This document shows positions 22,243 to 57,450 of a stretch of 64,000 nucleotides of DNA, one piece after another (position 1 is the stretch's first letter; each line of letters opens with the position of its first letter). The position numbers were made by a program, and so were the translations under genes. The notes beneath the pieces were generated by a model. That model saw only the letters and a program-made list of their open reading frames with translations. It did not search any database and was not told the DNA's origin. The stretch covers positions 6,448,001-6,512,000 of the forward strand of contig OY740795.1 in NCBI GenBank assembly GCA_963514005.1, given 5' to 3'. This DNA comes from Raja brachyura. Lineage: Eukaryota.

Positions 22243-22346
22243 GGGTACACAAAAGGCTGGAGAAACTCAGCGGGTGCAGCAGCATCTAAGGAGCGAAGGA
22301 GATAGGTGACGTTTCGGGTCGAGACCCTTCTTCAGACTCCTGAGAA
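22243..22346 (-). mobile_element. Short Penelope-derived insertion with intact hammerhead core and 13-bp TSD
   Basis: TGTATCTCACCCA at 22230-22242 and 22347-22359; minus-strand CTGAAGA-A-GGGT-CTCG-ACCC-GAAACGTC at 22308-22335. Confidence 0.8.
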
Positions 22347-22784
22347 TGTATCTCACCCACATGGCTTTAATATTTAGAAACAAGGAACTGCAGATGCTGG
22401 TTTATAAAAGATGACACAGGAGTGCTGGAGTAGCTCTGCAGATCAGGTAGCATCTCAGGAGAACATGAATTTCCATGTTCTCCTGAGATGCTACCTGACC
22501 TACACTAGTACTGTCTCTCTTTTCTGGCTTTAATATTCATGTACTTTACAGAATAAGTGTAATGCTGGCAATGCCAGCAGTTATTATCCATACCCAACTG
22601 CCTTTCAGAAGTTGGTGATGAGCCCACAGGGATGAAACCTGCATTTTTATCAATCCATTCAACTATGCAAAGATATCCTAGAGAAATATAAACTATCCTC
22701 TAGAGGTTATTGAACTGGAAACAATAAGGTGAAGTACAGTTTGTACATAGGTTCACACTTGACACATGTAGTGGCAGGGGCATA

Positions 22785-23740
22785 CAGTGCCCTCCATATT
22801 GTTTTTAACAAAGACACATCATTTATTTATTTGCCTCTGTACTCCACAATTTGAGATTTGTAATAGAAAAAAAAATTACACGCAGTTAGCGCACATTGTC
22901 AGATTTTAATAAAGGCCATTTTTATACATTGTGGTATGTAGAAATACCACCATGTAGAACTACAGCTGTGTTTATGCATAGGACACATGGCTTCACAGGT
23001 GTTTGCAATTGCTCAGGTGTGTTTAATTGCCTTCTTAATGCAGGTATAAGAGAGCTCTCAGCACCTAGTCTTTCCTCCAGAAAAGGAAACATTTTTTTGC
23101 TGTTTATCAACATGAGGACCAAAGTTGTGCCAATGAAAGTCAAAGAAGCCATTATGAGACTGAGAAACAAGAATAAAACTGTCAGACATCCGCCAAACTT
23201 TAGGCTTACCAAAATCAACTGTTTGGAACACATTAAGAAGAAAGGGAGCACTGGTGAGCTTACTAATCGCAAAGGGACTGGCAGGCCAAGGAAGACCTCC
23301 ACAGCCGATGACAGAAGAATTCTCTCTATAATAAAGAAAAACGCCAAACACTCTTCAGGAGTCAGGTGTGGATTTGTCAATGACCACTCTCCGCAGAAGG
23401 CAGGCCTGGCAGAGCATCGCCAGAGAAGACACCCAGCAACTGGTGATGTCCATGAATCGCAGACTTCAAGCAGTCATTGTATGCAAAGGATATGCAACAA
23501 AATACTAAACATGACTACTTTCATTTAAATGACATTGCTGTGTTCCAAACATTATGGAGCCCTGAAATGGGTAATTACTGCTGTAATTTCTACATTGTGA
23601 AAATAAAATGTATAAAAATTACCTTTATTAAAATCTGACAAAGTGCACTTTAACCACATGTGTTTTATTTCTATTACAAATCTCAAATTGTGGAGTACAG
23701 AGGCAAATAAATAATCATTGTCCCAAACATTATGGAGGGC
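22785..23740 (+). mobile_element. Tc1-like DNA transposon, internally deleted, long (~200 bp) IR/DR-type TIRs
   Basis: TA|CAGTGCCCTCCA left end; right TIR is the reverse complement (GTGGAGTACAGAGGCAAATAAAT...TATGGAGGGC, tip lost). Transposase remnant 23112-23508: MRTKVVP...GTGRPRKTS and ...LQAVIVCKGYATKY*. DDE core missing. Confidence 0.92.
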
Positions 23741-24211
23741 CAAATACATAACTGGCCATCCAATATCTCATCGTTTCTCACGACATCAAACTAAAAAAAT
23801 GCCCAAATACAAAACACAAACTCCCACGACACAAACATGGTGCACATATTTTTATTTATTTACTTTGAAACAAAGCAGGCCATTCGGCCCATAGGACTCA
23901 TGCTAGTCCCCAACAGACCGCCCACGTCAGTCTTGGCCACTCCAGTCTACGTCCACTCCTTACTCTTGTTGACCATCAACTTCGATTGTTTTTGTTTGTC
24001 ATTTATCTCGACTAAAGTGCAAATTACAGACCACGAGGTCAAAACACAAAGTGCTGGAGTAACTCAACGGATTAGGTCCGAATCTAAAAAAAGGGTCCAA
24101 CCACAAATGTTCCCTAACCCGCTCTGTTCTTCCAACATTTTGTTTTGCATAAGATTCAAACAACTCCAGTTATTTCTGTCTCGGCCCTGATGCCCCCGAA
24201 GACAAGCTCAC

Positions 24212-24279
24212 AAATGTCCACTCGGACCACCCTGCCGAGTCCAGTGCTTCAGCCTTTTGGACATCTCTTCTCCCCTCAT
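24212..24279 (-). CDS. HELLS: Candidate first coding exon of HELLS: MRGEEMSKRLKHWTRQGGPSGH(L)
   Basis: TT|gtgagc donor at 24211. From ATG 24279 (or 24264) the exon ends in phase 2, as the 20130 acceptor requires. Lies at the edge of the CpG island. No recognisable homology, so tentative. Confidence 0.4.
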
Positions 24280-24359
24280 CCGTCATTCTCGCCCCAGTCT
24301 GTGCTCCCTCCCAGCCGCCCCCTCCTCCCCCCTCCACCATTGTGCCCAGCCCACTCCCG

Positions 24360-24780
24360 GTGTTGTACCCACTCATTGCACCCACGCACACCCAGCTTTA
24401 CTCCCGACGTTGCATTCACCGGCACCCCGCGTTGCACCCACACACACCCGACGTTACTCCCGGCATTGCACCCACATACACCCGACGTTACTCCCGGCAT
24501 TGCACCCACACACACCCGACGTTACTCCAGGCGCTACACCCACCAACACTCAGCTTTACTCCCGGCGCTGCACCTACTCGCACCCTCTCGGCACCAGAAG
24601 TTACTCCAGACGATGCACTCTCTCGACACCTGAAGTTACTCCCGTAGTTGCACTTGCCCGTACCCGGCGTTATACTCCCCGCACCGGCGTTCTTGGCAGC
24701 GATACACTCCCCGCACCCGGCGTTATTGCCAGCGTTGTACTTCCCGCTCTCGATCCTGCAACCTCCCGCACCCGGCGTTA
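24360..24780. repeat. GC-rich minisatellite, ~34-bp unit CACCCGACGTTACTCCCGGCATTGCACCCACACA, degenerating outward
   Basis: Near-perfect units at ~24445-24530; the core GTTACTCC recurs to ~24740. Confidence 0.85.
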
Positions 24781-25340
24781 GCCCCAGCTCTGCACTCGCG
24801 CCGTTCTCAGTTTTCGCGCCATTTACCGGCGAGTCCAACGGTGCAACCGAGGGGTGCACTTGCGGCCGCTTCTGGTTTTTTGAAGTTCAATCTGAAGTTC
24901 ACCCCCACTTGCTGCGTGCACTGAAGCAACGACAATGGGGTGCAAAACTAATGTTCAAATCCTATACCTGACGCCGTGTGTTCCTCCGATACTGAAAATC
25001 AACTGGGCATTCCGAACCTTCCCCGTCTGTGAGTTGCGAATGGAAACTCCTCCGCGTTGCACCGGGGTGAGCGGGAGCGCGCACGGGCGAGAACAGCGTG
25101 GCGAGCTCCTCTATAATCTTTGGTGGCGACCGGCCGCGGTGGGGGGCACGCGCGATCCAGGCACCGAGGGGAGGGGTGAGCGAGGGAGAGAGCGCACGGA
25201 ATCCGGGGCGCACGTGCTGCGGACCACCAAAGGTGCGGACGATATGGAAGGGCGCGCTTAGCGCGGCGGTTGGTGGCACGTGCGCCCGCGGGTGAGGGGA
25301 GGGGAGGGGGGGGGAGCCGTCGCCGTGCCCGCGCAAAGCT
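24650..25340. promoter_or_regulatory. CpG-island-like HELLS promoter region with E2F site and CHR-like elements
   Basis: Dense CpG/GC. TTTTCGCGCC (E2F consensus TTTSSCGC) at 24811-24820; TTTGAA at 24879-24884 (+) and 24954-24959 (-). HELLS is a known E2F target. TSS not determinable. Confidence 0.65.
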
Positions 25341-25404
25341 AAAACAGTAATGGGGGAGGCTTTGCGAGGCTATAGGATCTTTGATGCGAAGGTAGGAACA
25401 TGAA

Positions 25405-25576
25405 CACACACCCCCACAGACAGACAGAGGAAGACAGACAGATAGGCACACAGACAGACAGAGACACACAAACAGGCGCACACACACAAATAGAGGCACA
25501 CATATAGGGGCACGTACACATACAGACAGACACATGCATACACAGACACAGTGACACACACACACACACACACACA
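25405..25576. repeat. Compound CA/GACA microsatellite
   Basis: Directly visible. Pure (CA)n also at 10941-10969. Confidence 0.85.
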
Positions 25577-26399
25577 AATGATTTGGATCATCTGTCAAAG
25601 TTTGGCTCAAGTCAGCATTGAAATAAAGGAATGCAGATCATGGTTAATGCACAAAAGGGCACACAGTGCTGGAGTAATTCAGCGGTTCAGTTATTTAATG
25701 TATTATGTGAACCAACGTACAGTGAAAAGTATTTTTGTTGCATGCTAGCCAAGTCAGCAGAAAGACTAAGTAATTAAAATTAGGCCGTCCACAGTGCACA
25801 GACACAGGATGATGGGAATAACGTTTAGTGCAAGGTAAACTCCAGTAAGGTTTGATGAAAGATAATCCGAGGATCTCCAATGAGGTTGATGGTTATGGTA
25901 GCTCAGGACCGCTGTCTAGTTGTGATTCAGTTGCCTGATGACAGCAGGGTCAGGAAACATCCATGGATGTTAAGATGGTCATATACAATAGTGGTAGGTG
26001 CACTAGAGCAGAACAGCCCCCTTCCACCTATATCCCCTTCTCTAGCTTCAAATTTCTGCCATCTCTTTCCTGTGCCCCACCCATGCCAAAACGCACCCAG
26101 TTCCCCCACAATCTCCCAACCCTCCCTCCCACTCTATTCCTTTCCCCTCTTTCGGACACACATCTCCCATCGCTGAATCCCTAATTTCTACTTTGTCCCC
26201 TCCCTTTCCCCTTCCACTTGCATCCCACCCTCCGGCTTTACATTTCACTCCTCTTCGCTCCTTATTGGACGCGTCTCCATTTCATCTCTGGCCTTTGTAC
26301 ACCCATCTGCCAACCAACCACCCGCCCCTCACCTCAACACACCTATCACTTGCCTGGCTTTGTCAAGTGTCCCTGATAGGACAATGAAATTCTTGCTTT

Positions 26400-28408
26400 G
26401 CATCAGCACACAGAACATGGAAGGCATTTACTACTAAACAGATCAGTGTGTCCATATACCATATATAAATATATTCAATTCAAGTTTAATGTCATTGCAC
26501 AAATACAAGTATAGGTACAACGAAATATACACACATTAATAAATAAACTAATAAAGTGCAAATAACAGATAATGGGTTTAAGAAACTCAACGGGCGCAGC
26601 AGCATCTAAGGAGCGAAGGAGATAAGCGACGTTTCGGGTCGAGACCCTTCTTCAGACTGGTGAAGGGTCTCGACCCGAAACGTCGCCTATCTCCTTCGCT
26701 CCTTAGATGCTGCTGCACCCGCTGAGTTTCTCCAGCTTTTTGTGTAACCCTCGATTCTCCAGCATCTGCAGTTCCTTCTTTAACACAGATAATGGGTTAT
26801 TAGTTATCAGAGTTTTGTCCGAGCCAGGTTTAATAGCCTGATGGCTGTGGGGAAGTAGCTGTTCCTGAACCTGGTTGTTGCAGTCTTCAGGCTCCTGTAC
26901 CTTCTACCTGAAGGTAGCAGGAAGATGAGTGTGTGGCCAGGATGAAGTGGGTCTTTGATGATACTGCCAGCTTTTTTGAGGCAGCAACTGTGGTAAATCC
27001 CCTCGATGGAAGGAAGGTCAGAGCCGATGATGGACTGGGCAGTGCTTACTACTTTTTGTAGTCTTTTCCTCTCCAGGGCGTTCAAGTTGACGAACCAAGC
27101 CACGATGCAACCGGTCAGCAAGCTCTCTACTGTGCACCTGTAGAAGTTAGAGAGAGTCCTCCTTGACAAACCAACTCTCCGTAATCTTCTCAGGAAGTAG
27201 AGGCGCTGGTGAGCTTTCTTGATAATTGCATCAGTGTTCTCGGACCAGGAGAGATCTTCACAGATGTGCACGCCCAGGAATTTGACGATCTTGACCCTTT
27301 CAACCATCGACCCGTTGATATAAACAGGACTGTGGGTCCCCATCCTACTCCTTCCAAAGTCCACAATCAGTTCCTTGGTTTTGCTGGTGTTGAGGGCCAG
27401 GTTATTGTGCTGGCACCATATGGACAGGTTGAGGGCCAGGTTATTGTGCTGGCACCATATGGACAGTTGCTCGATCTCTCTTCTGTACTCCGACTCATCC
27501 CCATCAGTGATACGTCCCACAACAGTGGTGTCGTCAGCAAACTTGATGATGGAGTTCGCACTGTGACCGACTATGCAGTCATGAGTATATAGAGAGAGTA
27601 CAGCAGGGGGCTGAGCAGGCAGCCTTGAGGTGCTCCCGTGCTGATTGTTATCGAGTCTGACACATTTCCATCAATACGAACAGACTGGTCTGTGAATGAG
27701 GAAGTCGAGGATCCAATTGCAGAGGGATGCGCAGAGACCCAGTTCTGTGAGTTTGGAAACCAGCTTGGAGGGAATGATAGTATTAAATGCCGAGCTGTAA
27801 TCGATGAATAACAGCCTGACATATGAGTTTTTGTTGTCCAAGTGGTCCAGAGTGGAGTGGAGAGCCAGCGTGATTGCATCCACCATTGATCTGTTGGTAC
27901 AGTAAGCGAACTGCAGTGGGTCAAGGTTTTTGTCAAGGTAGGAATTGATTTGCACCATGATCAACCTCTCAAAGCACTTCATCACCACAGGCATTAGTGC
28001 CACAGGTCGATAGTCATTGAGGCATGTCACCTTGCTCTTCTTGGGCACTGGTATAATTGATGCCTTTTTGAAGCAGGTGGGAACCTCAGACCTCAGAAGT
28101 GAGAGGTTGAAAATGTCCGTAAAAACTCCAGCCAGTTGGTCCGCACAGGTTTTTAGAACACGACCAGGTATACCATCAGGTCCAGGCGCCTTTTGAGGGT
28201 TCACCCCTCTGAAGGATTTCCTGACGTCGGCCTCTGTGACTGAGACTGAAATACCATCACAGCGAATGGCGGCTCGGGGAGGCACATCGGTGTTCTCCCT
28301 TTCAAAACGTGCGTAAAACGCATTGAGCTCTTCAGGGAGTGATGTTTCGCTGACATTCGAGCAACCTCCTGATTTCGCCTTGCCTGAAGAAGCAACCAGA
28401 AACGTCAC
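26400..28408 (-). mobile_element. 5'-truncated Rex1/Babar-type LINE (RT plus 3' UTR), frameshifted
   Basis: [77 protein letters not shown]; stop at 26807. Confidence 0.9.
26579..26784. mobile_element. Fold-back Penelope-derived insertion with back-to-back hammerhead cores and 14-bp TSD
   Basis: ACAGATAATGGGTT at 26565-26578 and 26785-26798; ~75-bp arms inverted around 26656. Confidence 0.82.
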
Positions 28409-28927
28409 CTGTTATTCCCTGTTGAGTTCCACCAGAAGTTTGTGTTGTAATATTGCTCAAACAGCCCTTTGTCTGCATTACCCTGATAAAAATAGTGGCT
28501 ATTCTGATCTCAAGAGTTTATTTAAATGTCATTCGAACCAACAATCGCATTCTTGCAGAAGCATAACAGGCTGGTAAACACAAAATGCTGGAATAACTCA
28601 GCGGGACAGGCAGCATCTCTGGAGAGAAGGAATGGGTGACGTTTCGGGTTGAGTCTGAAGAAGGGTCTGGACCCAAACCGTCACACATTCCAGCATTTTG
28701 TGCCTTGTCTTCAGTTTGAACCAGTACTGCAGTTCCTTCCTACACAGGCCTGTAAACACGATACACACGGGTATAATAATCAAAATAGCATGAAATTAAT
28801 TACCATAATTATACAAAAAATCGTTTGTGCAATCAAGACCGTCCATGGAAATTCATAGTTGAGGTAAGTGTTGTGCAGTTCGAGATCCTGATGGGTATTG
28901 GGAAGAAGCTGTTTGAACCAAGTCGAC

Positions 28928-29292
28928 ACTTAAGGGGTTGGACAGGCTAGATGCAGGAAGATTGTTCCCAATGTTGGGAAGGTCCAGGACAAGGGGTCAC
29001 AGCTTAAGGATAAGGGGGAAATCCTTTACGACCGAGATGAGAATGACTTTTTTCACACAGAGAGTGCAGAGTGTCTGGAACTCTCTGCCACAGAGGATAG
29101 TTGAGGCCAGTTCATTAGCTATATTTAAGAGGGAGTTAGATGGGGCCCTTGTGGCTAAGGGGATCAGAGGGTATGGAGAGAAGGCAGGTACGGGATACTG
29201 AGTTGGATGATCAGCCGTGATCATATTGAATGGCGGTGCAGGCTCGAAGGGCTGAATGGCCTACTCCTGCACCTAATTTCTATGTTTCTATG
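28928..29292 (+). mobile_element. CR1-type LINE 3' end
   Basis: RLDAGRLFPML...GYGEKAGTGY*, (TTTCTATG)n tail. Confidence 0.92.
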
Positions 29293-32200
29293 ACACGGTT
29301 TTCAGACACTATGCCTTCTTCCTGGTGGTATGAGTGAAATGGAAGCAGAGGCAGGGTGGTATGCCTTTGATGATATTGGCCGCTTTCTTGAAGCAGCACC
29401 TCTTTTAGATCCAATATGTCTCCATGAGTCTCCAGAAAGATCACAACCTGAAACCTCATCTACCCATGTTCTCCAGAAATGCTGCCTGACCTACTACGTT
29501 ACTCCAGCACTTCATGTCTTTTGTTCCTCCTGCAGATCCCTTTGGTGGTAGGGAGGTCAGTACCTGTGATGGACAGGAACACACAATAGAAAACAGAAAC
29601 CTGCAAATATGTATCTTAGTATTACCAAAATCAAATTACTCACCTGGATGTATAGCTATAGTTTTATAGGCACATAGGTATTCAGGGAATGGAGGGATAG
29701 TAGTACGAGTGTCAGTGGTTAGGGGGAGAAAACGGGAGAATAGTTCAGAGGAAAAGATGGATCAGGCATGATTGAATGGCGGAATATACTTGTTGGCCAC
29801 AATGGCCTAATTCTGCTCCTATGTTATGAATTTATATGGTTCACATCCATGGAGAGGGGATTATGTTTGATACCATTTTTGCCACCTTTCCATTTCTAGC
29901 CTTCATTCACCTATGTAGATCAGATTCAGATTCAATTTTAATTGTCATTGTCAGTGTACAGTACAGAGACAACGAAATGCATTTAGCATCTCCCTGGAAG
30001 AGCGACACAGCAAATGATTTGAATAAATAATAATAAGGGAATTATTGGTAATTCTAGCTATGTACCAACCCCTCCCCCCACTTGTATCCACTTATTATTT
30101 GCCAGGCCTTGTCCCGCCCCCACATCTTTTTTCTAGCTTTCTCCCTACTATAATAATCAGTATCACCTCCAGAGATACTGCCTCACCCACTGAGTTGCTC
30201 CAGCAGTTTATGTTCCAATTATTTTTTTTAATTGGTTTCCTTTTATTTTCTAATTTAATGTTTGAATGTCTGGTTGTTATGAACATTGGATCATGCTGGA
30301 ATATATGATTGCAAAAGAAAACAAGGTGGAATCTTAGTTCATTGTTGTTCCTGTTGCAGTTAGCTATCTGCTAGTGGTAAATATAAACCAATGATAGCTG
30401 TTGCTGTCACCAAATTGACAGAAGTGTTGAAACAAGGAACTGCAGATGCTGGTTTATGCAAAAGGACACAAAGTGCAGGAATAGCTCAGCAGGTCATGCA
30501 ACATCTCTGGAGAACATGGATAGGTGACGTTTAGGGTCAGGACCCTTCTTCGGACCGATTGTGGTGGGTGGGCAGATAAAGTTGGGACAGAAGTGAGCTA
30601 AGCTTTGTCCTATATCTCCTCTCTTCCAACTTTTCTCCCTCCCCTCAAACCTCCCCAATGTCTAGAGAAGGCTCCCTACTCGAAACATCACCTATCTAGA
30701 TTCCCCAAAGATGCTGTGTTACCCACTGAGCTACTCCCCCTTCTCGACAGAAATTTTATAGAAACATAGAAAATAGGTGCAGGAGGAGGCCATTCGGCCC
30801 TTCAAGCCAGCACAGTCATTTATTGTGATCATGACTGATCGTCCGCTATCAATAACCCGTGCTTGCCTTCTCCCCATATCCCTTGACTCCACTAGCCCCT
30901 AGAGCTCTATCCAACTCTCACATAAATCCATCCATTGATTTAGCTTCCACTGCTCTTTGTGGCAGGGAATTCCATAAATTCACAACTCTCTGGGTAAAAA
31001 AGTTTTTTCTCACCTCAGTCTTAAATGACCTCCCCTTTATTCTAAGAATTTTGTTACATTAAGTATCACATTGTGCATGAGGCTGCAGTGCTAATCTGGA
31101 ACCACTAGCAGACAGCAAAGTCATTGTAATTTGCACCACTCACCACATCATTTGGATTGGGGAATGCTGATTTCTCGCTGATTCGCATTGTATACATCCT
31201 AAAGCACCAAAGATAATAAAGTGCCTTCTGATCATTTATCATGGTTGATGAAATGAAATTGAAATTCAGCTCTGCAAACTTCCACAGACAACAATGTTAT
31301 AATGAGCACGTAAACTGACCTGATTAAGAAATCTTGATTGTGTGATTAAATATTGACCAGGATACTTGAGATAACACTCCAACTTGATGCAGTGCCTCAT
31401 TAGCCTGAAATGAGAGACACCTGAGTTCAATCCACCACCGTGAAGATAATTAATATGGATGGCAAAGACTAGAGGGTATGGTTTTAACGTGAGAAAGCCA
31501 AAGTTTAAAGGAGTTGTACAGGCAAGTTTTGTTTTACGCAGAGAGTGGTTGGAATGCACCACCATGGATTGTGGTGGAGGCAGATACAGTAGTGGTGTTT
31601 AAAGAGACTTTTGGATAGGCAATGAATATGGAAGGAGGTGGATCATTTGCAGAGGCGATTAGTTTAACTTGGCATTAAAAGCTGCATTGAAATTGTGGGA
31701 TAAAAGGCCTGTACCTCTACAAGAGCTTGGTGCTAGCTGGTCTCTGTTCAAAAATGAGTCACAGCTTCTCCTTAAACAAAGCAGATCTGTGGCACCTAAA
31801 CACAGTGGGATGCAGCAAACAGTCTGAAGAAGGGTCTCGACCCGAAACATCGCCTATCTCCTTCGCTCCTTAGATGCTGCTGCACCCGCTGAGTTTCTCC
31901 AGCTTTTTGTGTAACCCAACAGCATACAAATCGGTCTGGTGATCTGGACTAAGATGTGTGGAGTGTTAGTCTAGACATTGGAGTAAGGAGTTGTTGAATC
32001 ACTGGCAAGTTAATGTTCTAATGTATGGTAATTCTGCCTGATTTAGAACTTTTATTACTTTCTCAGGATTAGGTGTCTAGTGATAGGTGAATTACTTTGG
32101 GAGCAAGGTCTATTTTTGGGATGACACAAAGCAACACTGTCTGCAGAATACCATTTCAACATTAGCATGAACTGGAAGTCAAAATTACATTGAGTGTAAT

Positions 32201-34947
32201 AGGTAGCATTGCAGCTGTATAAAACTTCTGTTAGCCTGTGTTTGGAGTATTGTGTGATGTTTTGGTTGTCCCATTATAGAAAGGGTGTTGATGGTTTGGA
32301 GAGGTACAGAAAAGGCTCACGGGGATATACCCAAATTAGCTATAAGGCGAGTCATACAGTGTGGAATCGGGCCCTATGCCCCAACTTGTGCATAGCAACC
32401 AACACGTCCCATCTACACTTGTGCCACCTGCCTGCATTTGGCCCATATCCATCTAAACCTGTCAATCCATGCATCTGTCTAATTGTTCCTGCGCCTCTCC
32501 AAACCTTCAACATCCTTCTCAGAGGTTGAATAAACTTAAATTGTTTTCTCTGGAGCATCAGAGGCTGAGATGTACACCTGAGAGAAGTATATAAAATGAT
32601 GAGAAGCATGGATAGTCTTTTTCCAAAATGTCAAATATGAGAGAGCATGGCTTTATGGGGGGGGGAAATGTAAAGGCGATTCACAAGGCAAGTATTTTTT
32701 AATGCAGGGGATGAGGGGTCCTGGAATGTGTTGCCTGGGGAAGTGGTGGAAGCAGATATGATAGATACATGTGAGACAGGCAGGCGATGGTCCATAAGTT
32801 ATAGGAGCAGAAATAGGCCATTCTGCCTAGCAAGTCTACTCCACCATTCAATCATGGCTGATCTATCGTTCTTTCTCAACCCCATTCTCCTGCCTTCTCC
32901 CCACAACCCCTACCACCCTTGCTAATGAAGTATCTGTCAATCTCCATTTTTAAAATATCCATTGACCTGACCTCCACAGCCGTCAGTGGTAATAAATTCC
33001 ACAGATTCATCGTGCGCTCCATAAACAAATGGGATAAACCATGTTTGTGGAAATGGATAGGAAATATTTAGAGGGATATGGGCCAAACGCAGACAAGCGG
33101 ATCTAGTGTATATGAGGCATCTTGATCGGCATGGACAAGCTGAGTCAAAGGGCCTGTTTCTGTGTTGTGTGACTCCATGACTAAATGGGATTAGTTCAAA
33201 TTGGCATTGTGAACAGTATAGACATTGTGGACCAATGAGTCCAGTGTTCCTGTGGTGTACTGTTCTATACTTTGTGCAGTAAATTTTAACGTGACTGGGC
33301 AATAGTGACTGAATGCAGGGTCTGCTTATCACACCAGCCTCAATCTGTCTTCTTTACTGCCTGGAATTATTCTTTGAAAGCCCAATGGGCTCAATGTTAC
33401 TGCACTTTTCCATTGCTTCCCACTGGAGGTGAATCAGACAAACTGTTTGGGATTCTGGAATGTGTAAACAGATGTGTTCTGGGTGTGTGATGGATGAAGA
33501 TGATCAAGGAGCTAGAAATGTAGACTGAAGTCCTGTTTCACTGTTGATGCAATAGGAATTCTGAGTGAGAGTGCAAGTATTCTGTTTCAAGGCAACAATG
33601 TAAACACTCAGTGGGCGGAGAAGTATTCTGAAGGCCACTACAGGACTCTGTGGTAGGTGTGTGAGAGAAAAGGCAGATATCTTTTGTTACTTCCACGTTT
33701 TGGTCTTAGTTTAGAGATACCGAGTCCACGCCGACCATCGGATGACCCGTTTACACTAGTTCTACGTTATCTCATTTTTGTATCCACTTTCTAAGCACTA
33801 GGGGCAATTTGCAGAGGCCAATTAATTAACTAACCCGCATGCTTTTGTAATGTTGGAGGAAACCGGAACACCCAGCGGAAACCCTGGCGGTCATAGGGAG
33901 AATGTACAAACTCCGCATAGACAGCACCTGAGGTCAGGATTGCACTGGGTCTCTGGCCCTGTGAGGCAGCAACTTCTACCAGCTGGGGCTTACCTGGATC
34001 GGGAGCTGCTCCAGTATTTTGGACGTTGGGACTCTGGACTTCTGGAAATGGACAATTTACAGAAGTCAATCAACTGACAAACACACACGTCTTTGGGATG
34101 TGGGAGGAAACCAAAGCACCCGGAGGAAACCCACACGGTCACAGTTGAGAATGTGCAAATTTCATCCGGAGAGCATCAGAGGTCAGGATGAAACCTGGGT
34201 CTCTGGCCCCATGAGGCAGCAGCTCTATCAGCTGCACCACAGTCCTGTTTTATGAGATTACTGCCAATTAATTTTGTTTTATAATGAAACCCTTATCGGA
34301 CTTTGTGCTGATTATTACATTAGTAGCAAATAACGTATACCATAAATATTTAAAGAAAATTCCTGGAAGGTCAACTGCTCTGATAAGCATATCAGTCAAA
34401 AGATAAAGCAAAACTTTGAAATAAAAATTGTATCAAGGAGTCTTCATATTGAAGCAAATTGTGATTAAATCTATAGAAAAAGATAGTCAAGAGTTACAAT
34501 TGTTTCAAGTGATACTGGATTATACAAAAGCAAACAGCCCAGAGGTCAAATGTTAATTCCCTGACACGGGCTGGAAAAACACAATGTTGATATATTAAAT
34601 TCTGGCCAGACAGGAACACATGAACACAAAATCACCAGCTGGAATTTCCGACTAAAACTTTTTTCCCTCCTTTTTACAGATGCAGTGCCCTCTTTGATTA
34701 AGGTTTTGGCCTCAATAATACTTTGCATGGTTCAATGTCAAATTTTGTTTGGTCAGCCTCTCATGCGGTGCCTTGGGGATTTTACCACATGAACAGCACG
34801 ATTAAATACAAATAGTTTTTTACTCGGGGAGAGATAATCCTGAAAGGTTATGTCTAAATGAATAAATGCCCGCTCACATTAGTACATAAATTGGAAACTG
34901 AGGTCAGGATTAGCAAACATCCTGGACGCATACATCAAGCAGAATGC

Positions 34948-35170: not shown

Positions 35171-35273
35171 AACTCCGGAGAGTGCATTTACTGAAGCATT
35201 TGATTTTCATTGGAAGCCTGTGGGCATCAAAATCAAGCTGTCAAGTTAGTAGGCAAACTACAGTACATTCATT

Positions 35274-41363: not shown

Positions 41364-41391
41364 CTGAAGAAGGGTCTCGACCCGAAACGTC
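41364..41391 (+). ncRNA. Minimal type I hammerhead ribozyme core (Penelope-associated); identical cores at 41943-41970(+), 45917-45944(+), 22308-22335(-), 26628-26655(-)
   Basis: CUGAAGA + extra A + stem II GGGU/ACCC with CUCG loop + GAAA + CG + UC (palindromic ACGU at helix III). Stem I is only ~1-2 bp, so activity is unproven. Confidence 0.65.
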
Positions 41392-41887
41392 ACCCATTCC
41401 TTCTCTCCGGAGATGCTGCCTGTCCCGCTGAGTTACACCAGCATTTTGTGTCTATCTCCAGTTCAAACCAGCATCTGCACTTCCTTCCTACACATTTTCC
41501 CAACTATTTATTGTCACGTGTACCGAAGTACATTGAAAAAATCCAGTTGCGTGCTAACCAGTCAGCGGAAAAACAATACATGATTATAATCGAGCCATCT
41601 ACAGTGTACAGATAAATGGTGAAAGGAATAATGTTTAGTGCAATATAAAGTCCTGTAAAGTCTGTTTGAAGATAGTCCAAGGGTCTCCAATGAGGTAGAT
41701 AGTAGCTCAGGACTGCTCTCTAGTTGTTGGTACCACCTATACTTTCAACTGTACTACCTATCACTTGTCAGGCTTTGTCCCACTCCCACGTCTTCCCCAG
41801 CTTTCTCTCCCCCACTACAATCAGTCTGAAGAAGAATCCCAACCCGAAAAGTCACCTCAATGTCCGCCAGAGATGCTGCCTGGCACT

Positions 41888-42036
41888 GCAGATGCTGGAG
41901 AATCGAGGGTTACACAAAAAGCTGGAGAAACTCAGCGGGTGCCTGAAGAAGGGTCTCGACCCGAAACGTCGCCTATCTCCTTCGCTCCTTAGATGCTGCT
42001 GCACCCGCTGAGTTTCTCCAGCTTTTTGTGTAACCC
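41888..42036 (+). mobile_element. Penelope-derived fold-back insertion with 15-bp TSD, nested in an older copy of the same superfamily
   Basis: ATGCTGCCTGGCACT at 41873-41887 and 42037-42051; inverted GGGTTACACAAAAAGCTGGAGAAACTCAGCGGGTGC arms. Confidence 0.82.
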
Positions 42037-45000
42037 ATGCTGCCTGGCACTCTGAGTAATTGCAGCACATTGTGTTTTGAGCAGGTAATATATGGGTCAG
42101 ATGTTAAAAAGAAAGGATGACATACATTGCCCTTCATGGCCTCCGATATTCCAAAAGTGTGGCACAATGGTGCAGCAGCTAATGCCTCTCAGCTCTAGTA
42201 AAACAGTTTTAATTCCGATTTTTTGTGTTACCTGCATGGAGTTTGCAGGTTTTCTCTGCGGCCTCACGGATTTTCCCCAGCTACTCCGATTTCTTCCCAC
42301 ATCCCAAAGGTTAATGGCTACTGTAATTTACCTCTGGGGTAGGGGAATCAGAGTGGAGTAGATGAGCATGTGAGAGAATAGTTTACCAGGAAATAACTGA
42401 CGGGAATGCATGGGTGAAGATACAGCATAGATTCAATGGATGAATGGCCTCCTCTGCACTTTAGACTTTAAAGTTACCTTTCGTCCCGCCGAATCTCCTC
42501 CGATCAGCGAATACACCGTACGCTAGCACTATCTTACATACTGGGGACAATATACAATTTTGAGGAAGCCAATTAACTTACCAACCTGTACGTCTTTCGA
42601 GTGTGGGAGGAAACCGGAGCACCAGGAGAAATGCTACGCAGTCACAGGGAGAATGTCCAAAATATTGTGTATATGGAACGACATTGCCGTTACTTTTCGC
42701 TGTACCTCAGTACACATGACAATAAAGTAAACGCAACTCAAATCAAGAACCAAAGGACATAGTTTAAGATGAGAGGGGAAAGATTTTATAGGAATCTGAG
42801 GGCAACTTTGTTTCACACAGAATGGAGGGTATAAGCTGCCAGAGGAGGTAGTTAAGCCTCGTAGTATAACAGCATTTACTATTGGCCCTCATAATTTCGT
42901 AAACCCTTTAAAGTTGCCCTTCAGCCTCCTTTGCTCCAGGGAAAACAATCCCAGCCTATCTAGTTTCTCCTTGCAACTGGAGCTCTCCAGTTCAGGCAAC
43001 ATTCCTGTGGATCTTTCCTGCATCCTCTCTGGCTTAATCACATCCTTCCTCAGGCCTGGTAATCGGAACTGCACACAATACTCCGAGTGTGGTCAAATTA
43101 GGGCAAATTATACAACTGCAACATGACATTACAACTCGTACTCAGTGCCGTGGCGGACGAAGACAAGAGTGCCATACGCCTTCTTTGCCATCTACCTTTA
43201 TTTCCACTTTTAGGCAATTATGTACTTGTCCCCCAGCACATTGATCGAGTGACAAAGAAGGTGTTACTCTCCCAACACCTCTACTTTCTTAAAGTGATTC
43301 AACATGCCACTGAATACTGCAGCAACGTTTTACAGATGTACTGTAGAAAATATACTTACTAACTGGTTGCATCATGGCCTGCTATGGCAATTGCAATGCA
43401 CAGAAGTACAACAGGCTACTGAGAGATTTGCTGCCTTACAGCACTTACAGCACCAGAGACCCGGGTTCGAACCCGACTACAGGTGGTGTCTGTACGGAGT
43501 TTGTACATTCTTCCTGTGACTGCTTGGATTTTCTCTAAGATCTTCGGTTTCTTCCCATACTCTTAAGACGTACAGTATTGTAGGTTAATTGGCTTGGTAT
43601 AAATGTAAATTGTCCCTAGTGTGTGTAGGATAACGTTAATGTGTGAGGATTGTTGGTCGGTGCAGGCTCGGTGGGCGGAAGGGTCTGTTCCCACGCTGTA
43701 TCTCTAAACTAAAAAACTAAAGTGGTGGACTCAGTCCAGTTCATCACGGACGCAACGCTCCCCTCCATCGAAGAGCATCTACACTAGGCGCTGCCTCAAG
43801 AAGGCAGCATTTATCATCGAGGATCCCCACCATTTGACCCATGCCCTTTTCTCACTGCTATTATTTGGCTGGAGGTATAGAAGCCTGAAGTCCCACATCC
43901 TTCAGGATCAGGAATAGATACTTGATGTAGGAGCGATCTTTTGGAGCTGCAATGGCGATTTACAGTATTTTATAAATCAATTTTTTTGCCAGACCTGACT
44001 TGCATTGAAAACATTGTTGCCTTTTGCAAGGTATTTTGGAATATGCTTTGGTCTATGCTGGGAGTGCAGGTAAACTCGAACAACAATAGTACTTCCAGGA
44101 CACCAGCAGATTTAAACTAAGGGTGTGCACTTTATTCTGATCTAGCAGCAAGTAACAACAACACCTGATGCTTATTTCTGTTTTAGTTTAGAGTTAGAGC
44201 ATGGGAATAGACCCTTTGGCCCATCTAGTCCACACTGGCCATTGACCACCTGTTCAGACTGGTTCTATGTTTTGTATGCACTTTTGTACGCACTCCCTAC
44301 ACACTAGGGGACAATTTAAAGAGGCTAATTAACCTACAAACCCATACGTCTTCATAATGTGGGAGGAAATTGGAACACCTGGACGAAAACCACGCGGTCA
44401 CAAGGAGAACGTAAAAACACCATACAGAGAGCTCCCGAGGTCAGGATTGAACCCGGGACTGACTTAACTAATCCTGCCTCCTGAGATTTCTGATGAAGGG
44501 CCATTAACTTGAACCATTAACACTATATCCTTTTAAGGCAGGTAAACGTCCTAAAGTTTAAGAAAGAACTGCAGATGCTGGTAAAATCGAAGGTAGACAC
44601 AAAATGCTGGAGTAACTCAGTGGGTGAAGCAGCATCTATGGAGAGAAGGAATTGGTGATGTTTCAGGTCGAGACCCTTCTTCAGACTGCAGCTCGATGTC
44701 TAAACATCCTAAAGTGCTAAGTTGGAGCACAATCAGACAAAAAACAGGACATACATGAAGAGATAACACTGCAGTCTCTGTTGCAAGGATTTTCATCTTC
44801 CACTGACATTAGGAAAATCTTTAGATAAAGTAAAGGTTAAGAGTAAAATATTGTTTCCTAATGCTACTTGATCGTACCCCCACATTAAAAGACATTTGGA
44901 GAGGTACATGGGTAAGAAAGGTTGAGAGGGATATGGGCCAAATGTGTTCAGGTGGGACTAGTATAGATGGGGAATCTTGATTGGCATAGGCAAGTTGGGC

Positions 45001-47309
45001 TGAAGGGTCTGTTTCTGTGCTATATGACTATGCATACCCAGGTGCCTTTGACCTGCTGAGTATTTCTAGCCTGGTCTGGACTTTTCTATTCCAGATTTCC
45101 AGCATCTGCTGAGGAATCGGGTCAAATCTTTCCACTTTGTGCCAGTTTTATTGAAAGATACTGGGTTAGATGGGGAGGTGGGGGGGTAATAGGGAGAGCA
45201 GGAGGAACTGTGATTCATTCTCAATGTTGGCTGAATCAGCCCCTTTTCAACACATGTCAGGGATCAGCAGAGCAAGTAGCAGGTGTGCCGTGATGAGATA
45301 ACATCACACAGGCTGATCAATGCTTGGAGGAGGTCTGCTTGAATTTAGCCAGAGGGATCCAGGCTAAAGGTCAGAGTCCAGTTGAAACTGTATACAGCAA
45401 GAATTAGTGCCAGCATTGGAAACCTTCCAAAATTACATATCAATGTGAACGATGCTAAAAGTAACGCAAGAACAAAAAATAGTAGATATTTTAAAATCGT
45501 GTGTAGGAAGGAACTGCAGATGCTGGTTTAAACTGAAGATAGACACAAAATGTTGTATTAACTTAGCGAGACAGGCAGTATCTCTGGGGAGAAGGAATGG
45601 GTGATGTTTCGGGTCGAGTACCTTCTTCAGACGGATGAACTGCAGATTAGTCGGAAGGAACTGCAGATGCTGGTTTAAACCGGATAGATACAAATCTACT
45701 CCACAAATGTTGCCTGACTTGCTGAGTGACTCCTGTACTTAGTATTTTACTCAAGATTCCAGCATCTGCCGTCCCTTATGCCTGCAGATACTGGAAAAAT
45801 GCCTGCCATTGTTTATTGCTATATTGACACAAAAAGCTGGAGTAAGCTCAGCGGGACAGACAGTATCTCTGGAAAAAAGGAATAGGTGCGGTTTCGGGTC
45901 AAGACCGTCCTTCAGACTGAAGAAGGGTCTCGACCCGAAACGTCACCTATTCCTTTTCTCCAAAGAACTGCAGATGCTGGCTTACACCAAAGAGAGACAC
46001 ACAAAGTGCTCGTGAAACTCAGCAGATCCTACAGCATCTCCGGAGATAAAGGATAGGTGATGTTTTAGGTCGGGACCCTATTTCAGATTGAAATTAAGTG
46101 CTGTGTGGGGGGATGGGGTGTGGGGGGGCTGGGGTGTGGGGGCCGGGGGGGAGGGGGGAGCGGCGGCGGCGGCAGGTGGAAAGACCTGGACAACAGATGA
46201 CCTCAAGCAAAATTGTGTTGTTTAGAAATTCTTTGAACATTTTGTCCATTGTAATTGGAGGTGGACAAAAGGGTTGTTCAAATGAATTAAGTCATTGGAA
46301 ATGGAAGTTCCTATAATGAGATATCCAAGATCCGGTCAACTGGGACTGTCAAACTTTGACTTGAGGCAAAAAAGAAGTGTGAGTGCATTACATTCTCACA
46401 TTGTACAAAAATTACATCGCCTTTAATTTAGCCCCAGGATTAGGCTCTGTCAACAGGAATCCATAAACGGAGATCAAGCTCAACAAATCTGTTGACACAA
46501 GGAACTGCAGATGCAGGTTTACAAAACAAAAGACGCAAAGTGCTAGATTAAATCTCCGGGTCAGGCAGTATCTCTGGAGGATACGAGGAGACACCATTTT
46601 GAGTCGTGACTTTTTTTCAACAAATCTGTTAGTTTTATTAACACTATCCTACAGGGAGGGAGGCTAGGGAGGATACATCTTTGGAGTGTGGGAGAAAACC
46701 AAAGATCTCAGAGAAAACCCACACAGTCGTGCGTTGCAGCAAGTATATATTTTGAGTTTCCAAAAGCCCACGTTAAGGTGCTACACCAGATTATTGACAA
46801 AATTAGAGCACACAATATTCGGGGGTAAAATACTAGCTTGCATTGATTTTGTTGATGGATCGAGTAGGGATAAGTTAGTGAATATTAGTAGGTGATGAAT
46901 CGGTTGTCCAGGATATCAATGATATTCATGATTTGGATGAGAGAACAACTATAATATATCTAAGATGTAGAAAAAGACATGCAGTGCTGGTGCAACTCAG
47001 TGGATCAGGCAGCATCTCTGGAGACATGGATATGCGACGTTTCGGGTGAGCTTTCTTTAAGGGTTCATGCTCCATATTTGGCTATTCATGTTCTCCAGAG
47101 ATGCTGCCTGACTCATTGAATTACTCCAGAACATTGTGTCTTTTTTTAATAATATATCCAAGTTTGCTGATGATACAAATCAGGAATGGCAGTTTGAGAT
47201 GCGAGGAGGATGCGGGCAGTTTCCTGGAGACAAAAGCATACCAAGAGAATGCAAAAAAAAAAGTCAAATATATATAGTTTGGTAGAATGAAATAGGAATA
47301 ATGAAATAG

Positions 47310-51848: not shown

Positions 51849-54049
51849 GCCTGCACATCTGAGAAGACAATAATATCCATGCAATTGCTGGTCTCCTGCT
51901 ACTGGAAGCCTGTCTGACTCACAAATACTTTACCATAGATTCTGCACCTCGGATGCCAAGACTTAACCAAGAACGTAAGACTTGACCAAGAACGTTGGCC
52001 AACTCACCCTCAACCTAATTATTCAGTCTGATTTTGGGCTGCAGATCCTGTCTGATCCCCTTGTACTTCTTGGTCTAACTTGGATTTTGAAAAGTTAAGA
52101 AGGATATGGGCAGGTGGTACTCGCGTAGATGGAACATCTACGGTCGGCATGGACAGGTTGGGCCGCAGGGCCTGTTTCCGTGCTGCATCTCTGTGATTTG
52201 CTGGACTTTAGGGATACAGCGTGGAAATGGGCCCTTCGGCCCACCGAGTTCATGCCAGCCAGTGATCACCCTATACACTACCAGTACCCGACACACGAGT
52301 GAAAATTTACAATCTTACCGAAGCCAACTAACCTCCAAACCTGCTTGACTTTGGAGGGTGGGAGGAAACTGACGTACATCGTGGAAACCCGTGCGGTCAT
52401 CGGGAGAGTGTACAAACTCCGTACGACAACACCCGGAGATGTCTGGATCGAAACCAGTTCTCTGGCGCTGTGAGGCAGCAACACTGCCGCTGCGCCACCG
52501 TGCCTCTGTGATTCTATAATCTCTTCATCAGTTGGTTTATCTGCATTCCACTCCTGCATGTGGCCAACCAGCAAAGCCTCATTAATGGGTCGGCCGTAGG
52601 AAGATCGTGCAGCACATGCTGCCTCTGAGTGTCATGAATGATGTGACCTGCGATAGGATAGAGGGCAGGAGGACATTGCACGGACTCGGAGAATCACACA
52701 GTGTAAGTGCCTGGCAGCGCTAATCTCCGTTGCACTGTTTATTTTTGGCACACAGGCCAGATCACTGAAATTCCCCCTTCAACGTTTCTATCTCTTCGCT
52801 GAAGAAAAATTGCAAGCTGCCTCAGGAATTTGCAAAGAGAGTAACAAAGTGTCACGACCAATGATGAAGGTAACACAGATGACCACCAAAAGCCCTTTTG
52901 AGTGTGAATTACCTCATCTGTCAGAAGCCTCCATGGGCACCTCATCTGCACTTTAAAGTGAAATCCACATGTAGAAATGATTACTGTAAATTAACAATAA
53001 TGTTAAAAGAAAAGCTATAAAGAAAACTACACACAGTACATTGATATCAACTAATCGGTCTTTAGTTTTACTTTTGTGAGGGCCATGCCAAATTGGAGTC
53101 ATGGAGTGATACAGTGTGGAATCAGGCCCTTCGGCCCAACTTGCCCACACCGGCCAACATGTCCCAGCTACACTCGCCCCACCTGCTTGTGTTTGATCCA
53201 TATCCCTCTGAACTTGTCCTATCCATGTACCTGTCTAACTGTTTCTTAAATGTTGGGATAGTCCCAGCCTCAACTACCTGCTCTGGCAGCTTGTTCCATA
53301 TACCCGCCACCATTTGTATGAAAAAGTTGCCCTTCAAATTCCTATTAAATAATTTTCCCCTTCATCTTGAACCTATGTCCTCTGGACCTCGATTCCCCTA
53401 CTCTGGGCAACAGATTCTGTGCATCTACCCGAGTCATTCCTCTCAGGAGAATACTGGTCCCATTATTTTCATCATTTCATAATTAACAATGCCGCTGGAT
53501 ATCCTGGGACCAGACAGGCCGTGGGCTCCACAAAGTGCTTAGTTTAGTTCAGAGAATCAGCGCAGAAACAGGCCCTTTAGCCCACTGAGTCCGTGCCAAC
53601 CAGCGATCACCCCGTACACACTAGAGACAATGTACAATTTTACCAGAACCAGTTAACCTGCAAACCTACACATCTTTGGTGTGTAGAGCACCCGGAGAAA
53701 ACCCACACAGCCGGTCACAGGGAGAAGGTACACCCTCTCTGCAGACAGCTCAGGATTGAACCCGGGTCCCTGTTGCTGGAAAGCAAGAACCCTACTGCTA
53801 TGCAACCATGCCGCCCTTTGTGCTTGAGGGCTAGATACCAGGATCTGCAGATGCTGAAATCTTTAGTAATGCACAAACTGCAGATGCTGTCTGAATGCTT
53901 TCTTTTTTGATCCTGATTTTTTTTTTTTTTTAAACTGCTGTTTTACTGTTCGTTAAAACCTCCTGACCTGTACATGCAGTGAGCCTGCACTGACAGCCCA
54001 TTGCTTCAACAGTACAGATAATAGAGCAGTCTGAGACTCCATTGAATTT

Positions 54050-54676
54050 AGAAGCATGCAGGTACAGCAGGCAATGAAGAAAACAAATGTCATGTTGGGC
54101 TTCATAGTGAGACGATTTGAGTACAGGAGCAAGGAGGTCCCACTGCAGTTGTACAGGGCCCTGGTGAGACCGCACCTGGAATATTGTGTGCAATTTTGGT
54201 CTCCTGATTTGAGGAATTATTGCCATTGAGCGAGTGCAGCAAAGGTTCACCAGCTTAATTCCTGGAATGGCGGGACTGACATATGATGAAAGAATGGGCA
54301 TATATTCACTGGAATTTTGAAAGAGAGGGAATCTTATAGAAACATATAAAATTCTTAAAGGATGGACACGCTAGATGCATGAAAAATGTTCGTGATATTG
54401 CGCGAATCCAGAACCAGGGGTCAGCCATTTCGGACTGAGATGAGGAAAAACATTTTCACCCAGACAGTTGTGAATCTGAGGAATTGTCAGCCACGGAAGG
54501 CAGTGGAGGCCAACTCAGAGTTCGATGTAGCTCTTAGGGCTAACGGATTCAAGGGATATGGGGAGAGAGTAGGAACGGGGTACTGATTTTGGATGATCAG
54601 CCATGATCATATAGAATGGTGGTGCTGGCACGAAGGGCCAAATAACCTACTCCTGCACCTATTTTCTATGTTTCTA
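54050..54676 (+). mobile_element. CR1-type LINE 3' fragment
   Basis: [21 protein letters not shown]...; TTTCTATGTTTCTA tail. Another CR1 tail lies at 55515-55902. Confidence 0.9.
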
Positions 54677-57257
54677 AGAAGGATTTGGATGGGCTTCAGG
54701 CGGCTCAGGCCATATTGCCCTGTGAGAGGCAACTCAAAATGGCTTGAGGGTAGACCCAGGCTATGAGGAAACAATCCTCACAAAAGTTAGTGGTTACTCA
54801 GAACGCACCACAGCACAGATCATGCGTGGTCACAATTAATGAGGATGCCCCGTATCAGAGGAACAGGTGTTATTTTGGAAGGACCATTAGTTTAGTTTAG
54901 TTTATTGTCACATGGACCGAGATACAGTGAACAGCTTTTGTTGTGTATTATCCTGTCGGCAGAAAGACTGCACATGACACAATCGAGCCGTCCACGGCGT
55001 ACTGGTACATGATAAAGGGAGTAAAGGGACAAAGGGAATAATGTTTAGAACATTGGGGGAGATAGGTTTGACTGAAGCAAAAAATAGAAATCCCCAGGGA
55101 TGCACCGCAAACGCAAACAATGCAGAGTAGGGGCTCTGCAGCTTGATAACAGGGCTCTGGAAAATTGTAAGCACTTAGGACTAAATAGGGAGGAACAGTC
55201 CATCAACTCAAGTGCCTTGAGGACATTATAATCAAAGTGAAGCTTGTGAGAGCAAACAGTTATTTGTGTGGCAACTTTAGGGTTAGAACCGTTCTTCAGA
55301 CTGATTGCAGGCGGAGTTCTCTGTCCAGCCCCATCTCTTTTCCAGCTTACTTTCCCGCCTCCCTCCGCTCTGCAATCAGGGGGGGTGGGGAAAGCTGGAG
55401 GAGAGGTGGGGGTAGTCTGGGATGTGATAGCTGGAAACAGGTGAGGGGGAGGGGTTTGATTAGCAGGTTGTTGCACAAAGGCCAGAGATGAAATGGCAAA
55501 GAGCATTGGAACAGATAAGATTGTTAAGGGCTTGGACACACTAGAGGCAGGAAACATGTTCCCGATGTTGGGGGGGGGGGGGGGGGGGGGGGGAGGAGAG
55601 AGAGAGAGTCCAGAACCAGGGGCCACAGTTTAAGGATAAGGAGTAAGCCATTTAGAACGGAGACGAGGAAACACATTTTCTCACAGAGAGTGGCGAGTCT
55701 GTGGAATTCTCTGCCTCAGAGGGTGGTGGAGGCAGGTTCTCTGGATGTTTTCCAGAGAGAGCTAGATAGGGCTCTTAAAAATAGCGGAGTCAGGGGAGAA
55801 GGCAGGAACAGGGTACTGATTGGGGATGATCAGCCATGATCACATTGAATGGCGGTGCTGGCTCGAAGGGCCAAATGGCCTACTCCTGCACCTATTGTCT
55901 ATTGAGATGAGGATAGAAGAGGCACAAAATGTGAAGCCAGAGGAAGCAACGTAGATGAAAGAGAATGGGGAAAGAGAAAGGGAGAAATTGATGTGCATTC
56001 TGATGGTGCACAGGGAAGAGAGGAGGTTAACGTGTGGGAGGGTATTTGTAGATTAGTTACCTAAAATTGGAGAGTTCATTGTACATACCGTTGGATATTT
56101 CTGGATGCCCTCATCAGGCTTTTCATCATGGGTTAAACCAGACAATTTACTCTTCACGAGACAGACACAAAATGCTGGAGTAACTCAGCGGGACAGGCCG
56201 CATCTCTGGAGAGAAGGAATAGGTGACGTTTTGAGTCGAGTCCCATCTTCAGACTAGTCAAGGGAGAGGGAAACGAGAGACATACAAGGATAGGATACAA
56301 AGGACATTGATTATCACATACACCAATTGGTGTAGTGAAATTTGACTTGCCATTGCAGCACACAAATAAATATAAGACACATCATTGAAGAATTTAACAA
56401 TAAACATAAAAACATAGACAGTGATGTGGAGAGATATAGAACAAATTAATGAAAAATATGCAAATGAGGATCTCGACCCGAAACGTCATCCAATCCTTCC
56501 CTCCAGAGACGCTGCCTGTCCTGCTGAGTTACTCCAGCATTTTTTGTCTGTCTTCAGTTTAAACCTGCATCTGCATTTCCTTCCTACACATTTCGTCTTA
56601 CCATGCATGAGGTTGTTGAGACCTCCCATCTGTGCCAGTGTGGGAGAGAGGTCAGGAATGGAATCGTTGGCTGTTCTCTTTGCTCCCATTCCTTAGTCAA
56701 GGCTACGGGAGATAATTGCAAAACACAGAGCAAAAGAAAATGCCAAAACTGGAAGTCGGAGTTAAAAACAGGAAAACAAAACTCCTGATGATAGACGCGC
56801 AAAGTGCTGGAGTAACTCAGCGGGTCAGGCAGCGATTCAGTCTGAAGAATGGTCCCGACCCAAAGCTTTCTCCAGAGATGCTGCCTGGCCCGCTGAGTTA
56901 CTCCAGCGCCTTTTTGTCTATCTTCAGTATAAACCAACATCTGCCATTCCTTTCTACACAAATAAAACTCCTGGAAGCATGGAGCAGTAGAGTTGCCAAG
57001 CCTGCAGGCATATCCTCCCGTTTCCAGACACATACCATACCAACCTGAAAGAAAAACAAAGTGGGCATTGTAAAAGTGAAATTAATATTGCCTTTAAAGT
57101 AATGCTACAATAAAGTCCCAGCGCGGACTGACAGTTCTTTTTCCAAACAATTGATATTATTCCTTTTCATACTCCTAAAAGACCTTTAACTCATTTTTTA
57201 GAAGTCATACAGTGGCATAATAAATTTTACAGTGAACCAAGCAACTTTAAAAGGAGC

Positions 57258-57450
57258 CGGAAAGAAGTGCAGATGTTGATTTAAATCAAGGCTAGACACA
57301 AAATGCTGCAGTAACTCAGCGGGACGGGAAGCTACTCAGGAGAGAAGGAATGGGTGACGTTTCGGGTTGAGACCCTTAACGTCACCCATTCCTTCTCTCC
57401 AGAGACGCTGCCTGTCCCGCTGAGTTACTCCAACATTCTGTGTCTCCCTT
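57258..57450. mobile_element. Penelope-derived fold-back insertion with 16-bp TSD
   Basis: CAACTTTAAAAGGAGC at 57242-57257 and 57451-57466; inverted GAGAAGGAATGGGTGACGTT / AACGTCACCCATTCCTTCTC arms. Confidence 0.78.

Follow-up and report, generated by a model that had tools for sequence, protein, structure and literature searches.

The published insertions of Penelope-like elements (PLEs) share a layout in which an inverted copy, a tail on one side only and a target site duplication (TSD) occur together (PMC3846280; PMC8557442). The protein of the Anolis PLE Poseidon cuts a nick in both strands and extends each of them; it initiates at two internal sites, and its main template is uncleaved RNA (PMC11167929). 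The origin of the inverted repeats and of the tail, and the cutting of minimal hammerhead ribozymes (min-HHRs) in vivo, are stated as open in PMC8557442, PMC4209133 and PMC11167929. We analysed a 64,000-nt stretch of the Raja brachyura genome (contig OY740795.1, positions 6,448,001 to 6,512,000; hereafter the window), in which short hammerhead-bearing repeat units are dispersed. Window coordinates refer to this whole stretch, and genome-wide counts to the 2.7-Gb source genome. We consider it likely that these units are very short insertions derived from the last 95-130 bp of a young PLE encoding a reverse transcriptase (RT) and a GIY-YIG domain, produced by an internal RT start followed by run-off.

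The units were compared with long elements of the same genome, numbering each arm from the C of CUGAAGA in the hammerhead core (+1). Young arms were 95-100% identical to the terminal ~95-130 bp of a PLE, and short, long and full-length copies had two 3′ ends in common, at ~+95 and ~+128, the latter including a 33-nt tail. An earlier reading of the DNA (the sequence-only reading) had derived the units from PLEs, and the match of the young arms to the terminal pseudo-long terminal repeat (pLTR) end of an intact element bears this out. Its further proposal of a separate non-autonomous ribozyme mini-element is not supported, given the same identity to the autonomous pLTR end and the same two 3′ sites. 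A shared ORF start was present in 14 of the 20 long-ORF loci fetched. At one of them (L175) the ORF starts 37 nt after the tail and encodes 1,192 aa with RT and GIY-YIG regions, whose Pfam matches (RVT_1, E 5e-4; GIY-YIG, E 2e-3) both lie below the curated cut-offs; 1,086 homologues of the parent ORF were found, carrying RT domains. The first look with protein queries gave 115,704 candidates for the C-terminal query and 5,627 for the upstream one, 150 of which were scored per query, and these totals are not copy numbers. Beside one genomic match, a GIY-YIG end was followed by a pyrimidine-rich stretch and then by the same arm, and a 5′-truncated copy lay directly upstream of the ORF as a partial tandem in nine loci (L171, L175-177, L179 and L181-184). 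The parent is an endonuclease-positive (EN+) PLE and, to judge from the cysteine cluster that precedes its GIY-YIG domain, which fits Neptune or Nematis as described, probably of Neptune type. Two further arrangements were seen among these elements: a PLE (L189) with a tandem amplification of its 5′ ORF region, repeating every ~195 bp, and two loci (L004 and L274) in which arm, tail and the next 75-100 nt, reaching into the ORF start, run into a second arm, as though copying had jumped and then taken in the 5′ end of the mRNA.

The 5′ ends of the copies were counted genome-wide using exact sequences with a common 3′ anchor. This family is young and holds more than 54,000 exact copies of one 28-mer. 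Exact copies numbered 39,725 from +9, 30,305 from +1, 25,321 from -2, 19,088 from -3, 12,346 from -5 and 8,779 from -11, so that the loss per nucleotide was 3.3% inside the core, 8.6%, 24.6% and 19.6% in successive steps between -1 and -5, and 5.5% beyond; in 59% of the 30,305 exact copies, identity with the parent ended 1-5 nt upstream of the core. Among 58 young arms not selected by their 5′ end (taken from 30 loci, three 200-kb blocks and the window), 26 started at -1 to -4 and 42 at -7 to +7, including 13 at +1 to +7; seven started at +14 to +29 and nine far upstream. The base preceding a start at -2 was G in 3,618 copies, T in 1,628 and C in 987 (G, 58% of 6,233 vs 32% expected), and before a start at -3 it was G in 2,356 copies vs A or T in 2,108 (G, 53% of 4,464 vs 29% expected). 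At the control positions A exceeded G more than twofold (G 24 vs A 55 at -9; G 65 vs A 160 at +12), with counts 20-55 times smaller. When 30 loci were examined, we read the G as lying outside the TSD in 13 of the 16 single-arm loci with a TSD of at least 9 bp. An extra G marks capped full-length L1 insertions (PMC11702581). Because the 5′ ends form a sharp pile-up with an excess of non-parental G, as at a capped RNA start, we infer that the fixed 5′ end corresponds to run-off at the capped start of the parent RNA. The sequence-only reading had asked whether unit ends were fixed or random, and they proved largely fixed, with this 5′ pile-up and two 3′ sites.

According to the mechanism that we propose, the PLE protein would initiate internally on its own RNA, close to the 5′ end, and reverse transcription would run off where the RNA is predicted to have its capped start, 2-4 nt ahead of the core of the hammerhead. 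If the RNA begins at about -2/-3, the first copy of the start sites would give a stub only, and long copies would come from the downstream copy. Other origins of the 5′ ends were considered and set aside. A core-less 5′ end three bases before +6 was first taken for a fixed-length family and turned out to be a query bias (61 exact copies vs 19,088), and a spliced 5′ end for that start was left unsupported. A stop at a lariat branch point would, by inference, place the peak at the candidate branch A at -6, and not at -2 to -4 where it was found.

In the window, 52 matches were obtained with one arm as blastn query. All five direct repeats reported by the sequence-only reading are present, as are its five identical 28-nt cores (22308, minus; 26628, minus; 41364, plus; 41943, plus; 45917, plus), to which a sixth at 31824 (plus), one base different, can be added. 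Direct repeats of at least 13 bp occurred in 2 of 300 random flank pairs, and each of the five units has its own TSD, in agreement with the earlier claim that they were inserted one by one. TSDs measured 13-16 bp in the window and 13-19 bp in most fold-backs of the genome, lengths that may include one trailing mismatch. The units had been described as fold-backs, which holds for three of the five with TSDs; the other two, at 22243 and 44558, are single arms. Repeat and blastn analysis of the window found no tandem hammerhead arrays, all units being single or head-to-head. The units and related remnants are as follows.

22243 to 22346, minus strand: young single-arm insertion of 104 bp; 8 extra nt, then parent -3 to ~+94; no tail; 13-bp TSD at 22230-22242 and 22347-22359.
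26579 to 26784, both strands: young head-to-head fold-back of 206 bp; minus arm 26581-26661, parent -6 to +75; plus arm 26662-26784, parent +6 to +128, with tail; 14-bp TSD at 26565/26785.
41888 to 42036, both strands: young fold-back of 149 bp inside an older arm (41826-42090); minus arm from ~+59 into the tail; plus arm 41943-42036, +1 to +94; 15-bp TSD at 41873/42037.
44558 to 44700, minus strand: older single arm of 143 bp with tail; 13 extra nt at the 5′ junction; 15-bp TSD with one mismatch at 44543/44701.
57258 to 57450, both strands: older-subfamily fold-back of 193 bp; a single tail, on the left arm; the junction truncates the core; 16-bp TSD at 57242/57451.
46965 to 47148, both strands: additional decayed fold-back; 14-bp direct repeat with one mismatch at 46951/47149.
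31820 to 31917, plus strand: young single arm, -4 to +94; core with one substitution.
41364 to 41497, plus strand: older-subfamily arm; core intact, tail present.
45823 to 45961, both strands: older fold-back remnant; intact core at 45917-45944 on the plus strand.
40628 to 40833, minus strand: arm with ~120 bp of upstream pLTR in the parent orientation, 79% identical to the intact element.
21489 to 21853, minus strand: decayed GIY-YIG end of a PLE ORF (tblastn E 7e-12).
36707 to 37030 (limits approximate), minus strand: decayed ORF end of a divergent subfamily, pyrimidine-rich 3′ region and degenerate core, in canonical order.

The GIY-YIG remnant at 21489 had been offered as the link between the repeat and PLEs. 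The remnant is real, but the arm that adjoins it (21356-21442) lies on the opposite strand; the true link within the window is 40628-40833, which is backed by intact elements elsewhere in the genome.

To characterise the fold-backs, a set of 27 entries was compiled, nine of them obtained with a tailed query. They represent 25 distinct events, since L218 gave two entries and L196 and L197 are near-duplicates; all were kept. Exactly one tail was found in 26 of the 27 and two tails in none, the entry without a tail being a mispairing in L218. Of the two arms, the one with the longer 5′ end bore the tail in 13 entries and the one with the shorter in 8, the arms being equal in 5. A variant at +42 agreed between the two arms in 23 of 24 entries (P ~4e-4; two entries without a base and one with T were left out), the exception being a nested insertion, and the arms additionally carried 30 private differences. 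Junctions mostly differed between events; the commonest one tested, that at 26661/26662 of the window, had 10 exact copies genome-wide, with the tail on either arm. The presence of one tail per fold-back suggests priming from both nicks at two start sites. Priming would then occur from both nicked strands, at +95 for one and at +128 for the other, and the cDNA ends would be joined head to head. It is rather improbable that the fold-backs arose instead by self-priming (snap-back) of a single cDNA or antisense template, as proposed for rotifer PLEs (PMC3846280), even though arms share variants and short palindromic overlaps are common at the junctions. If a sense-templated cDNA snapped back, the arm with the longer 5′ end should carry the tail, and the reverse was seen in 8 of 21 informative entries of this partly tail-selected sample. 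In addition, one fold-back (L241) has 148 bp of unrelated sequence between its arms, and the purified protein of the Anolis relative extends both strands (PMC11167929). Priming from both nicks thus appears to fit the fold-backs better than snap-back does, which does not in itself prove that one RNA served both arms.

We also examined the hammerhead and its predicted cleavage site. The core agrees with the min-HHR outline, as the sequence-only reading had proposed for a minimal hammerhead with a palindromic helix III: it has the CUGANGA / GAAA / UH core, an unpaired base before helix II, G10.1-C11.1 and the palindromic helix III positions. Among 189 cores, 112 were identical to the parent core and no recurrent compensatory change was found in helix II; dead copies are not expected to covary. 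A consensus fold of 12 aligned arms had one two-sided change and a positive covariation term, leaving a conserved structure unsupported. An Rfam search gave no hammerhead family at E<=1, and the matches obtained were hairpin artefacts of the fold-backs. Exact copies fell from 54,241 to 51,115 across +23 to +29, and cleavage was rejected as the main source of 5′ ends; as only 5.8% are lost across the cut, almost every template was uncut. Starts were nevertheless in slight excess at +29, exactly the predicted scissile bond (cut after GUC, +28/+29). Genome matches with a foreign purine before +29 numbered 432, vs 261 and 328 at the neighbouring positions, and true ends made up 38 of 53 inspected arms at +29 vs 7 of 20 and 7 of 20 at the neighbours (Fisher P 7e-4; independence does not hold for arms within the same locus, and calling ends automatically gave some errors in all three sets). 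The +29 set comprised the first 30 matches, 18 of the next 20 and two picked by hand. The estimate is ~310 copies starting at +29 (0.6%) vs ~90 and ~115 at the neighbours, about threefold. Several arms all starting at +29 were found in seven loci (L329, L335, L339, L353, L363, L369 and L370), and no such multi-arm event occurred among 40 control arms. Both arms start at +29 in the fold-backs L339, L353 and L370; L335 and L363 are arrays of ~62-nt units, L329 combines fold-back and array, and L369 is an irregular array. Visible TSDs bound L329, L335, L339 and L353. Judged from these ends, rare cleavage by the hammerhead in vivo is likely; the ribozyme would mostly be copied uncut and would cleave in a small share of templates.

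The arrays L329 (G000:C1:74835200-74835650), L335, L363 and L369 consist of three to five tandem ~62-nt units, each starting at the predicted cleavage site, with junction bases that are the same within a locus and different between loci. They could derive from repeated template jumps, from a small circular template or from later expansion.

A wider reading would see in these copies a fossil record of the PLE cycle, comprising a capped start at the hammerhead, a dimer that primes both nicks on one RNA, and germ-line cleavage whose 3′ product is copied. According to it, that product would sometimes be copied in repeated rounds to give the short tandem arrays, while one-RNA priming at both nicks would explain the inverted pLTR and the one-sided tail. 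We hold this wider reading tentatively, at slightly less than even chances.

Several observations weigh against the run-off mechanism or its extension. The loss of copies at -4/-5 and upstream may partly reflect subfamily differences and not ends. Out of ~13 ORF-start elements with an upstream arm or tandem, only L174 was read as starting at -3 and most continue into a partial tandem; templates or jumps that pass -3 are therefore common. Transcription in D. virilis begins far upstream of the hammerhead, at a site 46 bp ahead of a 75-bp intron (PMC2377424; PMC4209133). Of 13 sequencing runs considered, all of them contigs and one recorded as RNA with a 0.06 share, four were compared with the element; they gave neither starts nor ends, and contigs of this type cannot reveal starts. 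Helix I has only 2 bp with the parent upstream bases, as against 4-5 bp in min-HHRs, a 2-bp variant being described for D. virilis (PMC4209133). The lowest-energy structure predicted for the RNA is not the hammerhead. In the folded RNA +2..+11 is paired with the tail, at a z of -1.6 that falls short of significance, and a structural stop could result. Two of the seven multi-arm loci, L369 and L370, were picked by hand from the match list. The +42 variant is a CpG site that may track subfamily age, and the agreement between arms is no proof of one RNA.

An alternative for the 5′ ends is that the RT stalls on a longer RNA, either in the hammerhead or where +2..+11 pairs with the tail, and adds untemplated bases, the ends at +29 being stalls as well. 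The predicted pairing of core and tail, the many long elements that read through -3 and the shoulder of starts inside the core (+1 to +7) are compatible with such stalling. We regard it as unlikely, as the G excess is limited to -2/-3 and absent at -9 and +12, the fold is no better than those of shuffled sequences, and +29 is exactly the predicted scissile bond. Moreover, there is no G excess at +29, where A exceeds G in single starts, as expected for an uncapped vs a capped end.

The possibility that the units form an independent retrozyme- or SINE-like ribozyme mini-element, transcribed from short masters and mobilised by the PLE, has very little probability: both ends are fixed and the TSDs long, an internal promoter could survive in a copy that begins at -3 (PMC2377424), and the first bases of 61 arms may come from a recurring junction, but no diagnostic sequence separates short from long copies, variants are shared with the parent, that junction recurs 10 times among tens of thousands of copies with the tail on either arm, and neither tandem hammerhead units in the window nor stem II covariation among copies was found. 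Contigs of related organisms that join the tail back to -4 through short spacers would also suit such an element. In one related organism, tails (L175:4019-4035) are joined back to about -4 (3890-3900) with 5-30 other bases between them, and these joints are possible tandem hammerhead units of retrozyme-like type. Judged by their sequence, the units of the window are short PLE insertions in the published layout, not a retrozyme or a SINE.

Other repeats share the window. The element at 58603-63240 (minus strand) resembles a tyrosine-recombinase retrotransposon, with ORFs matching an integrase SAM-like domain (E 5e-7) and RVT_1 (E 3e-6); it may be of DIRS/Ngaro type. LINE fragments at 13965-16071 (plus strand), 18473-19094 and 28929-29298, several of them 85-93% alike and with no Pfam match for the two ORFs tested, are presumably of CR1 type, judging by their ORF ends. 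A further LINE RT fragment at 26807-28411 (minus strand; RVT_1, E 1e-13; ALKBH8_N, E 7e-13) directly adjoins the fold-back at 26579. A 34-bp minisatellite (24369-24594) adjoins a GC-rich stretch (~24900-25370), a possible promoter or first exon. Another abundant repeat, 100-200 bp long and likewise dispersed, occurs at 4976-5183, 33770-34226, 42560-42666, 44277-44460 and 52315-52421 (families D12, D15, D16 and D18) and is, we assume, probably a SINE.

As a new element family the finding is ordinary; its value lies in the mechanistic footprints of PLE copying. The young family gives precise positions for a predicted RNA start at -2/-3, RT starts near +95 and +128 and a predicted cut at +28/+29, and repeat libraries that label such PLE stubs as SINEs or retrozymes would be wrong. 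PLE stubs, the extra G and the +29 excess are not described in the literature consulted, which covers few subscription journals and includes a retrozyme preprint whose tables may list this repeat.

Compared with known systems, non-LTR retrozymes (10.64898/2026.07.22.740005) resemble the units in being pLTR-derived, in having a type I hammerhead and in being reported from one cartilaginous fish. They are defined by tandem units each with a hammerhead, whereas the units in the window stand singly or head-to-head, and the rare tandem arrays of this genome begin past the cleavage site and lack the core. Tandem units of the retrozyme kind were absent from the window, and no dedicated array search was made genome-wide. 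With the min-HHRs of metazoan PLE pLTRs the units share the core, the unpaired base before helix II, G10.1-C11.1 and the palindromic helix III positions, together with the prevalence of single dispersed motifs and some close opposite-strand pairs; the helices differ, with 2 bp vs 4-5 bp in helix I and 4 bp vs 7-8 bp in helix II (PMC4209133). Anolis Poseidon has the same two internal RT starts flanking the tail, extension of both strands, an uncleaved main template and a hammerhead upstream of the RT start sites. Its ORF begins inside the hammerhead, whereas here the ATG lies 37 nt after the tail, and no RNA-seq ends fall at its cleavage site, whereas a small genomic excess is found there in this family; run-off stubs are not discussed in the available part of that paper (PMC11167929). 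The closest likeness is to the insertions of EN+ PLEs, which likewise have a single ORF with RT and GIY-YIG, partial tandems, TSDs and a hammerhead in the pLTR (PMC3846280; 10.1101/2021.04.23.441226 = PMC8557442), as well as a head-to-head inverted 5′-truncated copy and a 30-40 bp tail on one end only (33 nt here). The present family differs from them in its TSDs (12-19 bp vs 8-10 bp in rotifer copies; PMC3846280; PMC8557442), in its tens of thousands of near-identical copies, and in that the whole insertion often consists of the terminal 95-130 bp, or two of these, with a sharp 5′ start.

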